Counted from the first letter of the stretch, positions 37,525 to 45,559 are shown. The stretch: DNA of 64,000 nt from Takakia lepidozioides (GCA_030704615.1 CM060732.1:42842001-42906000); one strand, 5' to 3'. Made by a program: numbers and translations. The notes: a model not told the origin generated them from the sequence alone.

Positions 37525-38916
37525 GTGCCACCAATTGCTGAGGAGAGTGCCGGTACGAGCATCAGCGATACTAGTGGGTATACAAGACGAGGTGTGCGGT
37601 TTAGACCACCTTCACCTTCAGTGTCTTCTGAGGAAGATTCAGACTCAGAGTTAGGAGGAAAATCGCCGAGGGTGCAAGCCATTTCCGTGCCATTGTTGTG
37701 GGATACGATGGAGGAAATGTATGGAGCTACCAAAGGGCCACGTCAGTACTCGGGAGCTGTGGGCACCATCGAGCTTGATGATTTCATACAGGAGTTTGAT
37801 AGTTGGTGTGATTTGCAGCAGATGCGCAATCCACAACTGTTTACGCCTTCTATGGCGTGGAAGAGGCTGTTTCAGCACCTTGAGGGGCCGCCTATGGATG
37901 ACTACCATGAGTTTAGGCGGGGAAATGAGGTGGAGATTGAGGAGTGGCGACAATATTGGTCACCTAATTATATCTCCATCACTAGAGGCACAAAGGCAGC
38001 GGCGATACCAGCAGCTACACTAACATCCCCAACTGCAAGCACTAGTAGTGGGACAAGTAATGATAGAGCTGGGAAATCCACCCAAGCTCCTGCTGCAGCA
38101 CCAGCACCCGTGCCTGCCTTTAACCCAGTTGTGGAGGAGTTTAGGAGAAACTACCAGGGGATAAGGACAGAGAAATTGCGGAGCTTGCAAGAGTTCCAAC
38201 GCAAGCCTACTGAGAGTTTGAGAGAGGCTTACACGCGCATGAGGCGAAATGTGACCCAAGGGGTTACGGAAGCTCAAGTAGTCCAATTCTGGTATGGAAT
38301 ATTGGACAAGGAGCTGAGGAGAAGGGTGCGGGATGCAACTCTCATACAAGTGGTCCAACCCACCTTAGCAAACGTGTTTTTGCTGGTAGAGCGGATAGAG
38401 CTCAATATGGTGGAGGAGCAAGTGGTCATGGTGGGGTTTGGTAAGGAGACACAACAAAGTGGGGCTCCTAGCCAACAACAACCACTACCCCAACGTGCTC
38501 AAGGCAACAAGGGGGCTTAGGCAAAGCCCAGGGAAGGACAGAGAGGATCTCAATTTCAGAGGTCACTTCCTTCATTCTCAGGCCAACAACAGTCGGGTGT
38601 GACATTTTGGGATTGTGGAGGACCCCATGTTAAGAGAGATTGCCTGGAGAGAGGCAAAGGGCCGACACAGGCACAGCCTACACAACTACAGTGCGGGCAT
38701 TGTGGCAAGTATGGGCATGAGGAGGCCCATTGTTATAACTTGCATCTTGAGCTACGGCCAGGCCAGTTCCAAAGGAACAATGGTGGCCGAGGACGAGGCA
38801 ATGTCAGAGAGGTAGAGAAGGCAGAGGTCGTGGTGGTGGTCGTAATCAAAACCAGGGAGCACAAGGTCAAGGTCAAGGTCATGACCAAGGCATGGTGGAT
38901 AGGCTTGTCCAGCTAG
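37525..38916 (+). pseudogene. Gag of the DNMT-bearing gypsy element
   Basis: RQYSG...LDDFIQEFDSW, FQRKPTESLREAYTRM and two zinc knuckles; a stop at 38518 and a frameshift near 38810. Confidence 0.8.
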
Positions 38917-39191
38917 AGCAACGTCTTGCTACCATGGCCACTACGCATGTTGCGCCAGCTCCAAGGCCTGAGGTTCAAGCCCCACCTGCACAACCTCCTA
39001 TGCCTAAGGAAGACCACATTGGTATGGGCTTCATGTGTGGAGCCGCACTTGCAGGACCATTGCATGTGGACTCTGCAGCTGCTGTCACTCGAGCAGCAAC
39101 TCGTGCTCTTGAGCCAAGAGGAGCAGATGTGGATTTTGATCCACAAAGAGGGGAAGCAAGTCGATAGACAAGGCTTCCACAGTCTTTCACA

Positions 39192-40274
39192 TTGGCTGAG
39201 ATGCCAACTATGTCATCGATAGCACCCGCTCGCCCAAGTATGTCAGAGGTAGAGCCACGAGTGCCAGTGGGGAAAGTTGGTGTGGCTCGGAAAATGCCAG
39301 TGGGTGGTGCTGCAAAGCAAGGTGCAGCGAGCATATTGTTGGGGGCGACTATGGCTGTTTGCCAAGCTCCATTGTTTTCTGCAATGACCATTGCAATGTC
39401 GGGGATTCGGCCAGCTGCTGTATTTAGACTAGCAGCTAGACTTTGTGAGAGTGGTGATGCATCGGCACTATCTACGGGGATAGCGGATAATGTGCAGTGC
39501 ATGGATGCCCTGGACTCAAGGGTGAAGACAGCCACAGCTGCACCATGGCAAACGGTAGCTGCAAGGTTGCAGGAATTGCCAGCTAGACCAGCCATTGAGC
39601 GTAGTATGATGACTCCTGGGGCAGTCCTGGTGGACAATCAGGATGGTGTGTTTCAGTTGGGTGGCCCAGCCGGGAGGAGGTATAGGCCACTACGGGTCTT
39701 GTTGGACTCGGGAGCACAACCATTGATGTTGGGAAGAGCAGCAATTGCAGGCTTGGGCCTTATAGAAGCGGATTTGGAGCCTTGCCCTATCCAAATTCAA
39801 ACATCTTTGGGCGGTTCAGAGAAGGCACGAGGGATTACACGTCATGAGCTCTTCATTCGATTGCAGCCGGATCATCCTACGGACGGCTCAGTCATGAGAG
39901 TTAAAGCCATTGTTACGGACGTGATGTCTTATGATGTACTTGTTGGTGGGGCGGTGTTATACCCCATGGGATTCACTTTGGACTTTTGGGAGGAAACGAC
40001 ATCCTACAAGCCGGAATGGCAGTCAGGAGATGGCCGTGCACTGCTTCCAGTGCGGTTTATTGGGAATGTAGCGGTGGATTGTAGGAACATGATGCCCACA
40101 TTGGCTGCATTTTCAGGGGTGGTGGCTTGGGGTGGTGAGCTCTTGGAGGGCAATAGCCATACAGATGATATGCCATCACCTGATGAGGACAAACAATTGG
40201 CATACAGGGCTGATTTGCTTCCTCATGTGCCTGTGCATATTCCACTGTGGGGTACGGTTGGGAATTTGCATTGA
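39192..40274 (+). CDS. Retropepsin (aspartic protease) region of Pol
   Basis: LRVLLDSGAQPLMLG ... SYDVLVGGAVL. Confidence 0.85.
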   Translation: MAEMPTMSSIAPARPSMSEVEPRVPVGKVGVARKMPVGGAAKQGAASILLGATMAVCQAPLFSAMTIAMSGIRPAAVFRLAARLCESGDASALSTGIADNVQCMDALDSRVKTATAAPWQTVAARLQELPARPAIERSMMTPGAVLVDNQDGVFQLGGPAGRRYRPLRVLLDSGAQPLMLGRAAIAGLGLIEADLEPCPIQIQTSLGGSEKARGITRHELFIRLQPDHPTDGSVMRVKAIVTDVMSYDVLVGGAVLYPMGFTLDFWEETTSYKPEWQSGDGRALLPVRFIGNVAVDCRNMMPTLAAFSGVVAWGGELLEGNSHTDDMPSPDEDKQLAYRADLLPHVPVHIPLWGTVGNLH

Positions 40275-40409
40275 GTAGCAGGGGAGTGTGTGCACCAAGC
40301 ATGGTAGCTGGCCTTTCCATTGATGAGTGAGGGGAGTTCAGTGACATCACCTGGACCTCCTGAGTTAGCTCCTTTGGACACGGTGCCCATTACCTGGCAA
40401 CCACTTGAC

Positions 40410-41345
40410 TCAGGGATTTGTTTGCTAGACCTGTTTGGAGGTATGAGCACTGGGCTTGCAGGAGTGTTGCAAGCAGGGATTAAAGTACGCAAGTACTTGT
40501 ATGTGGAGAAGGATGAGATTGCTCGGCGTATTTCTATGCATCACATTGCCTTGCTCACACACCGGTATCCTGTGTTGTTGCCTTTCTCAGCAATTCAAGG
40601 GTATCAAAAGGCCTTGCCAGCAGACATTACCTTGTTGGGGGCGGATGATTTGGAGCGGCATGGTTCCATTGACTTGGTGATAGCCGGATGGCCTTGCCAA
40701 TGACACTATCCCGCAGGTCATGGGAATGGCTTGCATGATGCACGATCGCATTTGTTTTGGGAGATGTTGCGAGTATTGCGGGACTTGCAGACGAGCCAAG
40801 TGCAACCTCAAGGCTATATCTTAGAGAATGTTCATTTTATGGGGGATTCTCGGGCCAGGGTAATGGCCAGTGTGCATCAGGTGCGGTCTTGGATTGGATC
40901 GGCGGTGCTATTGGATGCACCAACGGTGGGATCACGCGCGCATCGACCTCGATTGTGGTGGACCAATCTTGCACCACTAGAGCTGCTCAAGAGAGCATAC
41001 GATTCCATTCATCGGCTACCCAATCTCACGGTTGAGGGCATTTTGAACCAAAGGAGGCAACCACAGAGAGTGCGACATGATGATCGTCCACCTATAGCAG
41101 TGGTCAATTGAGTGGGGCAGCCACGTTCGGCTTTGCCTACGCTCATGAGCTTTCCCTCGTCTCATGCTTTTTGAGACAATGGTCCTCGATTGATTTGGGA
41201 CAGTGTGCTACAGCAATTGGTGGAGCCCAATGCGGATGAGCGAGAGCGGGCAATGGGATTTTCCACCGGCACTACAGATGTGCCAGCTCTGTCAGAGGCA
41301 TCACGCCGCCAAGTGTTGGGTCAAGCAATGGATCTAAATTGCTTG
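40410..41345 (+). pseudogene. Cytosine-5 DNA methyltransferase domain (DNMT3-like, non-permuted) embedded in Pol
   Basis: Motif I LDLFGGMSTG, II YVEKD, III PADIT, IV AGWPCQ, V DARSHLF, VI ILENV, VIII HRPRLWWTN, IX ERERAMGF, X RRQVLGQAMD. All are in one frame with PR and RT. In-frame stops at about 40701, 41109 and 41172. Confidence 0.93.
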
Positions 41346-44376: not shown

Positions 44377-44410
44377 TCCTAGCATATAGTCCTAGAAAGC
44401 CACGCCACAA

Positions 44411-44845
44411 TGATACGGAAATGGTGAAAAGAGGAGAAACCACTCTATCACGTTATATAAGTCAAGCCAATGGCACCTTTGCTAAAGGACTCCACCATAC
44501 AGACCTCACCCACTCTCCATCGCAAGTACTAGAGCCATGGCGGCGAGAGAGGCCTCGGGAGGCTCGACTAGAAGAAGACGAGCCTGCCTACGTCTCACGT
44601 GGAGATAACCTCCCCACGTCCCAAGTGAGGTTCGCCACCTCACTTGGCACATGGAACCAAATGAAGTCCCAATGCCAACAAAATACAAATATAAATGTAT
44701 AATGTCCTAATTAGTTAGAAATAACTATTTCTAACTAATCACAAACAAAACCATGACAGCTGTCGTGCACCTAAGCATCGTGCCACAACATACATCGTTG
44801 TCCAACCACACTTCCTAGCATATAGTCCTAGAAAGCCACGCCACA
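44411..44845 (-). repeat. 3' LTR (435 bp) of the DNMT-bearing element, followed by the start of a second tandem LTR
   Basis: Minus strand: PPT CTAGGGGGGCGAT, then TGTGGCGTGG...CCGTATCA, then T, then TGTGGCGTGG... again (44374-44409). The continuation of the second LTR lies on the plus strand at 45508-45559. Confidence 0.85.
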
Positions 44846-45109
44846 ATCGCCCCCCTAGCTGGTGATTAGGTCCCTCTAACACCGGATAGCTTGCAAGTAT
44901 CCACCCCAATAAGATCATCGCTTGGTCTTTAATCGCACAAGTCCCAATACCTGAAGTCGATAGATCAAGAGGCCGGGTGCAAACGTAGCCCCATCGTTAG
45001 TCGCCTTCATGCAATCCATGATCTTCAGTTGAGTATCCATGGCATTGAAGCCCCACTAGCTAGACCTTGGATCACTTGTCCGCCTCACCGTTGTCATGCT
45101 CACTACCTC

Positions 45110-45507
45110 TGTCCAAGGCATCGTGGACACAACCATTCTCCGATAGGAACCTCCTCAAGTGGCGGTATCAAGCATCCCATGTGCCACCCCTTGAGCATTT
45201 GTCACACACCAACATGGTTGCGGCGCCACCTGCATGCCCACATAGCATGCAACGCAAACCTGCAGGTACCACTGCAAGGTTGGGATCTATCCTCCCATCC
45301 ACATGTGGAAGGTGACATGGCGCACAATTGCGCACATGGTCCTTCCATACCATGCCATCTCGACCCTCCAAAATCAATACTCTTGAAGGCAACACCTCCC
45401 TGACCCTTAGAATCACACGTCCTGCTATGACATCCAACGTCGTAGGTGTTGTCTGCTGCAGATATACATAGTCCCCAGGGTGGAAATGCCGAACACTTGG
45501 CCGATAT
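45110..45507 (-). pseudogene. Integrase C-terminal region ending in a PHD finger
   Basis: FHPGDYVYLQQ...CMLC...[33 protein letters not shown] (C4HC3), with one 1-nt frameshift in a G run. Confidence 0.9.
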
Positions 45508-45559
45508 AGTGTGGTTGGACAGCGATGTATGTTGTGGCACGATGCTTAGGTGCACGACA

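Follow-up and report, generated by a model that had tools for sequence, protein, structure and literature searches.

A Gypsy retrotransposon lineage of land plants with a DNMT3-like methyltransferase, a conserved stop codon ahead of reverse transcriptase and split terminal repeats

A stretch of 64,000 nucleotides (nt) from Takakia lepidozioides (GCA_030704615.1, CM060732.1:42842001-42906000), called here the window and used for all coordinates, contains a dead, rearranged copy of a PHD-bearing Ty3/Gypsy retrotransposon with a DNMT3-like cytosine-5 DNA methyltransferase (DNMT). The methyltransferase domain is encoded in frame between the protease (PR) and the reverse transcriptase (RT). Judged from the sequences of its relatives, the TAG codon found at position 41736, between the methyltransferase and RT, is a conserved feature and not a mark of decay. 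The layout of the element is likely Gag-PR-DNMT followed by a readthrough stop and by RT, RNase H (RH), integrase (IN) and a PHD finger, so that the methyltransferase would be made at the level of Gag. By sequence, the element belongs to the KnitGypsy-Dnmt3 lineage (de Mendoza et al. 2018), which is extended here to land plants.

The methyltransferase domain has a length of 330 codons. Scored with X at its internal stops, it matches PF00145 with 43.7 bits (cut-off 22 bits; E = 3e-11), which is the check proposed by an earlier description of this DNA made without database searches (the sequence-only reading). Motifs I to X are unpermuted (LFGG, YVEKD, DI, GWPCQ, ENV, RAHRPRLWWTN, ERERAMGF and LGQAMD), in the linear order which that reading had reported, and its assignment to a DNMT3-like rather than a DRM-like enzyme also stood. 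The best sequence match in the PDB is DNMT3A (E = 7e-13), as compared to 1.5e-4 for DRM and 1e-3 for bacterial enzymes. A profile built from 57 relatives ranks DNMT3A (3e-24) above DRM (1e-12) and HhaI (2e-6). The predicted fold of the methyltransferase from an intact relative (L017) has a pLDDT of 95.5 and TM scores of 0.81-0.84 to the top four DNMT3A/B chains. Judged by sequence and by this model, the domain is of the DNMT3 type, nearer to DNMT3A/B than to DRM, DNMT2 or bacterial enzymes.

The domain was found in all 80 metagenome loci that were kept (L names; f1 and f2 are families among them), most of which have PR upstream and RT downstream. Protein searches yielded 60 long and 174 near-length relatives (120 of them listed) with up to 55-77% identity. 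Named matches in Marchantia polymorpha, Calypogeia fissa, Riccia sorocarpa and three Sphagnum species bear out the proposal of a land-plant family as opposed to a one-off insertion. The relatives span four land-plant and four algal genera (Closterium, Klebsormidium, Hariotina and Chromochloris); a search with the second open reading frame (ORF2) added Closterium and the Klebsormidium protein KFL_009030040 (P0200; PR-DNMT-RT-RH-IN). Six Marchantia records (P0003, P0005, P0063, P0064, P0070 and P0071) are full-length open Gag-PR-DNMT ORFs annotated as hypothetical genes, and the open Marchantia ORF1 copies sit on several chromosomes, two of them on the V sex chromosome. A 2.4-kb record labelled as a bacterial DNA cytosine methyltransferase (P0295) shares its C-terminal end with ORF1 of L015; it probably represents element DNA of a plant or alga that ended up in a metagenome bin. 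Viral contigs (30 loci) provided only distant phage methyltransferases (E of 2e-10 or weaker), eight of which were used as outgroup, and the protein atlas was uninformative on origin, with a Streptophyta cluster and phage clusters tied in score. The element is part of a large family in the host species, because contigs of the host-species run X1 cover it (40,339 align to 35500-46000, a depth that does not equal copy number) and include variants inside the DNMT (30 and 49 contigs differ at two listed sites). Contigs from host-species runs cover every bin from 35500 onward, whereas those of run X9, which is RNA by guess only, lie over parts of gag and PR and not over most of DNMT-RT.

The methyltransferase is, on the relatives' sequences, kept under purifying selection, by the dN/dS check that the sequence-only reading had proposed. 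The ratio of non-synonymous to synonymous changes (dN/dS) in three pairs of open-frame relatives is 0.034/0.257, 0.166/1.40 and 0.151/1.50 (0.10-0.13). The RT ratio between L017 and L029 is 0.03. The window compared to f1 gives a pN of 0.23 at a saturated pS of 0.755. Values for changes shared by at least three copies are 0.32 for DNMT vs 0.32 for RT in f2, and 0.49 vs 0.55 in f1; singleton changes in these decaying families give 0.51 (f2) and 0.76 (f1).

The most intact locus, L017, has an ORF1 of 1369 amino acids (Gag-PR-DNMT), a single TAG and an ORF2 of 1047 amino acids (RT-RH-IN-PHD) in the same frame. L029 has the same layout at the DNMT-RT junction. At the 26 junctions of f1 the stop occupies one column in 24 (one is deleted and one has TAC), with at most four stops in any other of the 179 columns. 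The stop at 41736 is accordingly assigned to the element and not to decay because intact relatives hold exactly one in-frame stop there, which is common to these sister copies. The claim that the pol frame is broken only by point stops is correct for most of them (the eight ORF starts listed by the sequence-only reading do share one plus-strand frame) and fails for 41736. Likewise, the single polyprotein proposed for PR, DNMT and RT holds as a shared frame, which in this clade is split by a conserved UAG into Gag-PR-DNMT and RT-RH-IN-PHD. Protein ends agree with this division. The tail from motif X to 41736 measures 140 codons in the window and 135-149 in several relatives, and the last residues before 41736 resemble the ORF1 ends of Calypogeia and Marchantia. 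Eight Marchantia cluster members or representatives are Gag-PR-DNMT proteins of 1159-1281 amino acids that end 75-77 residues past the domain. Fifty proteins in which the DNMT is complete and followed by no further domain end 15-181 residues past it, at distances that group by family (77 residues for seven Marchantia proteins and 95 for twelve proteins of another group). The DNMTs from ORFs ending past the domain lie in one clade (41 rows; support 98; all trees were built by FastTree with SH-like supports).

The six bases after the stop are CAACCA in the window, CAGTTA in L015 and L017, CAATCA in L029 and CAACCC at 22 of the 24 f1 stops. The window, L015, L017 and L029 fit exactly UAG-CAR-YYA, the type I readthrough motif of tobacco mosaic virus (Firth and Brierley 2012, PMC3542737), and f1 has CAR YYC. 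This context was kept despite saturation of synonymous sites between families and is found at none of the other 10 window stops listed. There is a strong probability, on these sequences, that the UAG is read through at a low rate to make RT-RH-IN-PHD. Readthrough is also used in murine leukaemia virus gag-pol and in SIRE1 env. The stop might instead be a true terminator, with ORF2 made by splicing, reinitiation or an internal promoter. An ATG lies two codons past the stop in f1, the region is left out in five gene models annotated in Marchantia or Sphagnum that fuse DNMT with RT, and Ogre elements splice at a similar place. However, each of the five fused models skips a different stretch, the spacers between DNMT and RT (406, 523 and 529 nt) preserve the frame, and the window, L017 and L029 have no nearby ATG whereas CAR-YY is kept in all four lineages. 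We consider this alternative unlikely.

Several observations speak against readthrough. The stop is TAA in 8 of the 24 f1 cases, the CAACCC of f1 departs from the motif at the last base and the ATG behind it allows reinitiation, and no consistent RNA structure was found 3′ of the stop in 7 sequences (z of -0.6 to -3.1). The stop is also lacking in family f2 and in Klebsormidium P0200; a programmed stop sought in f2 was not found, the top columns holding 10/28 and 18/37 stops, the latter inside the DNMT. The lineage as a whole can therefore do without an excess of methyltransferase over RT at the Gag level, and the stop characterizes one clade.

The placement of the element is supported by both trees. 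In the RT-RH tree it falls in a clade of 98 rows that includes P0200 (support 99), and in the DNMT tree the element clade, of 76 rows, includes K. nitens (support 93). The window copy groups with Marchantia, Calypogeia and Sphagnum-type copies (7 rows, support 97, for RT; 21 rows, support 100, for DNMT). These trees make the bryophyte host supposed by the sequence-only reading likely, and a cluster of pentatricopeptide repeats elsewhere in the window is in keeping with a land plant. The grouping with Klebsormidium that the trees had been proposed to examine was thus found; that the trees have no host DNMT3 row counts against the overall reading, and the clade name is provisional, the trees containing no REXdb references. 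A second architecture, RT-RH-DNMT-IN-PHD (P0038-P0060, P0096 from Hariotina and P0053 from Chromochloris), forms one clade of 16 rows in the RT tree (support 100). On this evidence the DNMT has changed position within one clade, because the chlorophyte-containing branch carries a related DNMT between RNase H and integrase. No mention of chlorophytes for Gypsy-DNMT3 was found in the literature passages covered. Outside the DNMT clade, the precomputed domain list of another Gypsy-PHD polyprotein (P0249) includes PF05869, which we take to be an adenine methyltransferase family.

The ORF2 of L017 encodes an integrase of the rve type and a PHD finger (PF00628), with no match to Chromo or to a tyrosine recombinase. 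The chromovirus class was rejected for this PHD found after the integrase in place of a chromodomain, and the DIRS/Ngaro/PAT class for the rve integrase, the lack of a recombinase in L017 and the presence of target duplications. The L017 PHD is nearest to those of CHD4, PHF12, PHF21A, KAT6A, KDM5 PHD1 and UHRF1, which presumably read H3 tails unmethylated at K4; we take the cage Trp of K4me3 readers to be missing from it.

The ends of the element differ from those of an ordinary long terminal repeat (LTR) retrotransposon. Complete relatives are 9.1-9.7 kb long and arranged as A1-coding-B1-A2-B2, where A begins with TGTCATG and B ends with CACGACA, giving TG..CA termini. The window holds B1-A2-B2 and its right end is CA; no A1, nor any copy of repeat A upstream of the element, was found in it. 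In place of two full LTRs flanking the coding region there are one whole B-A unit and one split unit. The name Gypsy given by the sequence-only reading holds for the proteins (Gag-PR-RT-RH-IN order); to judge from the copies compared, the element is no ordinary LTR element and is Gypsy by proteins and not by canonical end structure. A 4-bp target duplication flanks five of six complete A1..B2 copies (L035, L044, L046, L057 and L049; absent in L045), those of L049 and L045 being judged by eye. The duplication script scored 4/6 pairs as positive and misses L019, whose left point is the internal junction, and L024, which is internally deleted and has three of four bases matching. The B1-A2 spacer measures exactly 2 nt in 11 loci and in the window, and the putative att junction retains a CG in all four families seen. 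Family f2 (most of L041-L080), known from similar records, has the same split repeats and att junction as f1.

A polypurine tract immediately precedes B1 in the relatives too. No TGG-type tRNA site was seen after A1 in the copies examined. Instead, the sequence at the position of the primer-binding site (PBS) can pair with A1 some 25-30 nt downstream of a TATA-like box, the match reaching at least 14 nt in three of six copies. On account of its ends, polypurine tract and putative self-priming site, B-NN-A would behave as an LTR, and the A2|B2 joint would then be a junction of LTR end to LTR start. Most copies have this joint exact. In L026 it contains 14 additional bases that start with the PBS, and in L049 a stretch of 147 nt of B is missing from it; such variants are as expected of end-joining. 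An 850-nt extra in L068 was rejected as a junction insert, being another repeat inserted in A2. Five copies (L004, L008, L034, L041 and L073) stop at the first B, as a one-LTR circle or B-B recombination would give. The split repeats, TG..CA termini, 4-bp duplications and CA-NN-TG point to integration through a site inside one LTR. Staggered cutting of CA-NN-TG by an integrase would yield the usual recessed CA ends, and the circle junctions of the IS3 family offer an analogy.

These features can be assembled in a replication scheme. ORF1 would provide Gag-PR-DNMT, and low-rate readthrough of the UAG would extend it to RT-RNase H-integrase-PHD, so that far more methyltransferase than RT would be made and the DNMT would be packaged at the Gag level. 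It is reasonably likely that self-primed reverse transcription gives a cDNA with two B-NN-A LTRs whose ends are joined, and that the integrase cuts CA-NN-TG inside one of them. The product would be A1-coding-B1-A2-B2, and end joining before or after strand transfer would fit equally. On balance we favour the overall view that the DNMT3 released by the protease and packaged at the Gag level methylates the element's own cDNA before integration; action of the enzyme in cis on the cDNA is itself somewhat favoured. New copies would thus be methylated on arrival, and the chances are about even that they land in silent chromatin, reached through a PHD of the type that binds unmodified H3K4. Only tentatively can this be widened to a green-plant-wide clade with its own replication scheme (self-priming, LTR-end joining and DDE integration at CA-NN-TG inside one LTR), in which a leaky stop of land-plant members loads DNMT3 at capsid level, the cDNA is pre-methylated with the second, identical att site maybe shielded from cutting, and the PHD steers to chromatin without H3K4 methylation. 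If true, the element would read and write the same marks as host DNMT3.

The scheme has to face contrary evidence. Comparison of intact copies shows the DNMT to evolve 3-4 times faster than RT, the self-priming match is at most 11 nt in three of six copies and the window lacks A1. The CG ratio of the element is 0.52, less depleted than in neighbouring transposable elements (0.27-0.38), and this weak depletion does not favour heavy CG self-methylation. It is possible, with a probability that we regard as low, that the DNMT acts mainly after integration or in trans, an excess released from Gag methylating host chromatin, the insertion site or sister copies and so limiting or licensing transposition. 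Expression at the Gag level would give enzyme far beyond the need of one cDNA, Marchantia has several full-length ORF1 copies (1278-1281 amino acids) annotated as genes, and a host-benefit model was raised by de Mendoza et al. (2018; PMC5890265). In elements of f2, Klebsormidium and chlorophytes, by contrast, the DNMT is fused to RT or sits between RNase H and integrase, an arrangement that suits action on the cDNA complex. More doubtful is that the domain is kept for binding, for a structural role or for RNA methylation and deposits no 5-methylcytosine in DNA. The element gives no CG-depletion signal, and no activity test of the Gypsy-borne enzyme was found in the literature passages covered; against this, the catalytic Cys is present in 75 of 79 element-borne DNMTs and the motif VI (ENV) Glu in 78, these residues and the motif VIII Arg being kept in 74-78 of the 79 domains, and fold and sequence are of DNMT3 and not of DNMT2. 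We predict from these residues that the element DNMT is very likely active. A one-off host gene capture or an assembly chimera, for which only the two adjacent inversions of the window copy could be invoked, is refuted by the named relatives in eight genera, the metagenome loci with PR and RT around the domain and the many distinct host-run contigs that cover the DNMT, and its probability is negligible.

Features of the window copy are listed in Table 1.

Table 1. Features of the Takakia lepidozioides element copy (window coordinates)
Feature	Position	Strand	Remarks
5′ non-coding region, short tandem repeats, repeated in host	35500..37509	+	left end undefined, repeat A1 missing
Gag with zinc knuckles	37510..38916	+	Retrotrans_gag E 3e-4; 54% identity to Marchantia P0003 residues 1-357
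Aspartic protease, DSG at 39705	39615..40010	+	Asp_protease_2, weak match
DNMT3-like C5 cytosine methyltransferase domain, motifs I-X linear	40398..41387	+	stops at 40701, 41109, 41172
Conserved in-frame stop TAG CAA CCA, putative natural end of ORF1 (Gag-PR-DNMT)	41736..41744	+	fits UAG-CAR-YYA
Reverse transcriptase (YIDD at 42420), connection, first RNase H residues	41910..42872	+	RVT_1 E 5e-32; RT_RNaseH_2 E 5e-9
Inverted block 1: RNase H, integrase zinc finger, catalytic core	42873..44376	-	domain matches; normal join in other copies
Repeat B2, first 37 nt, severed by inversion	44375..44411	-	
Repeat A2, 347 nt, starts TGTCATG	44412..44758	-	
Internal junction CACGACA-GC-TGTCATG (B end, 2-nt spacer, A start), putative integrase att site	44752..44767	-	
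Repeat B1, 87 nt, ends CACGACA	44761..44847	-	
Polypurine tract, directly before repeat B1	44848..44859	-	relatives arranged alike
Inverted block 2, coding part: integrase C-terminal region and PHD finger, frameshifted	45118..45509	-	intact PHD in L017
Repeat B2, last 50 nt, ends in CA, natural right end of element	45510..45559	+	abuts LINE ORF1

The plus-strand frame 38751-42878 spans protease, methyltransferase and RT, with no frameshift between protease and RT and with 12 stops (39165, 40272, 40305, 40701, 41109, 41172, 41388, 41736, 41907, 42600, 42669 and 42876). Gag is interrupted by one stop (38518-38520) and shifts into the pol frame near 38770-38890. Because Gag-PR-DNMT forms a single ORF in relatives, this shift of frame in the window copy is put down to decay. 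In the segment 42873-45509 two neighbouring blocks have each been inverted where they stand, and about 25 codons between them are gone. The breakpoints fall where RNase H begins, within the tail of the integrase and in B2, which is cut into 37 and 50 nt. The join of RT to RNase H is normal in other host copies (42869 on the plus strand joined to 44376 on the minus strand in run contigs). Repair, aberrant reverse transcription or assembly may have caused the inversions. This copy is dead, as the sequence-only reading had said.

The element is bordered on the left by a DDE_1 transposase remnant (34393-35390) and on the right by a 5′-truncated long interspersed nuclear element (LINE) with zinc knuckle, endonuclease, RT and zf-RVT (45560-51694). 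The window also contains a second, unrelated Gypsy element on the minus strand (19400-32770), whose LTRs contain 10-bp tandem repeats and whose extra ORF of 863 amino acids (21952-24540) had no Pfam match, a repetitive pentatricopeptide repeat (PPR) cluster split into short frames (14200-17800), and an RNase H ORF (PF00075) with an adjoining Cys/His-rich ORF on the minus strand (10766-12139), probably the tail of another non-LTR element.

The closest described system is KnitGypsy-Dnmt3 of Klebsormidium nitens, in which, according to its authors, the DNMT shares one ORF with RT and RNase H and the repeats have a DIRS-like layout (de Mendoza et al. 2018, PMC5890265). In the passages covered, it resembles the present element in its intronless DNMT3-type domain within a Gypsy polyprotein, its purifying selection and its DIRS-like repeats, and differs from the land-plant clade, which has a conserved stop of leaky type between DNMT and RT; f2 is in one open frame, and we take this difference as a variant feature of the lineage. 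The K. nitens protein KFL_009030040 has the domain order PR-DNMT-RT-RH-IN and falls in the same RT clade as the window family. No mention of target duplications, the CA-NN-TG junction, self-priming or PHD was found in the text of PMC5890265 (figures and supplementary figures lie outside this scope). Other retrotransposon-borne C5 methyltransferases are those of SymbioDIRS-Dnmt3, for which CG activity was reported (PMC5890265), SymbioLINE-Dnmt and EpiLTRs (PMC5890265; bioRxiv 10.64898/2026.05.21.726589); as far as these sources were covered, they belong to other retrotransposon classes or have DNMT4-related enzymes. For the present lineage, the portion of the 2026 preprint covered names only "streptophytes (Gypsy-DNMT3)". 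Troyka (PMC12440569) is unrelated, judging from the part of its description covered.

The in-frame UAG followed by CAR YYA is shared with type I readthrough in tobacco mosaic virus, as described in the portion of PMC3542737 covered. The element differs in that its stop comes after Gag-PR-DNMT, which would place protease and methyltransferase on the abundant side, and in the CAR YYC of f1. Split direct repeats are also found in the tyrosine-recombinase retrotransposons Ngaro, PAT and TOC1, which share the A1-coding-B1-A2-B2 layout and the presumed circular intermediate; the element has in contrast a DDE integrase, a protease, TG..CA ends, 4-bp duplications and a polypurine tract before B1. The self-primed chromoviruses Tf1/Sushi, Tcn1, Phygy and Selgy similarly have no tRNA-type PBS and a PBS-position sequence complementary to the predicted RNA 5′ end (PMC6317226, as covered), while the element has a PHD and not a chromodomain, a DNMT and split repeats. 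The term "PHD" is absent from the main text of the survey by Neumann et al. (2019, PMC6317226). The literature covered gave no account of this element from land plants, of readthrough in it or of split repeats with integrase-type ends; subscription journals, Repbase reports and supplements lie largely outside this scope, and a prior description is possible. The element class is, by its sequence, already known from Klebsormidium, and it is the land-plant occurrence, the conserved stop and the integrase-type split ends that were not found described.

With the land-plant relatives, the transposon-borne DNMT3 ceases to be a curiosity of algae: it is abundant in the genomes of liverworts and mosses, that of the model Marchantia polymorpha among them. 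There, the anonymous ORF1 genes can confound DNMT counts and methylation genetics, and the open ORF1 copies make the scheme testable. An uncommon route of integration is implied by split LTRs whose ends are of the integrase type, and such elements would be missed or wrongly trimmed by software that searches for two flanking LTRs. The conserved stop, if leaky, predicts a quantity, DNMT at the level of Gag, and bears on why the element keeps an enzyme that hosts use for silencing.

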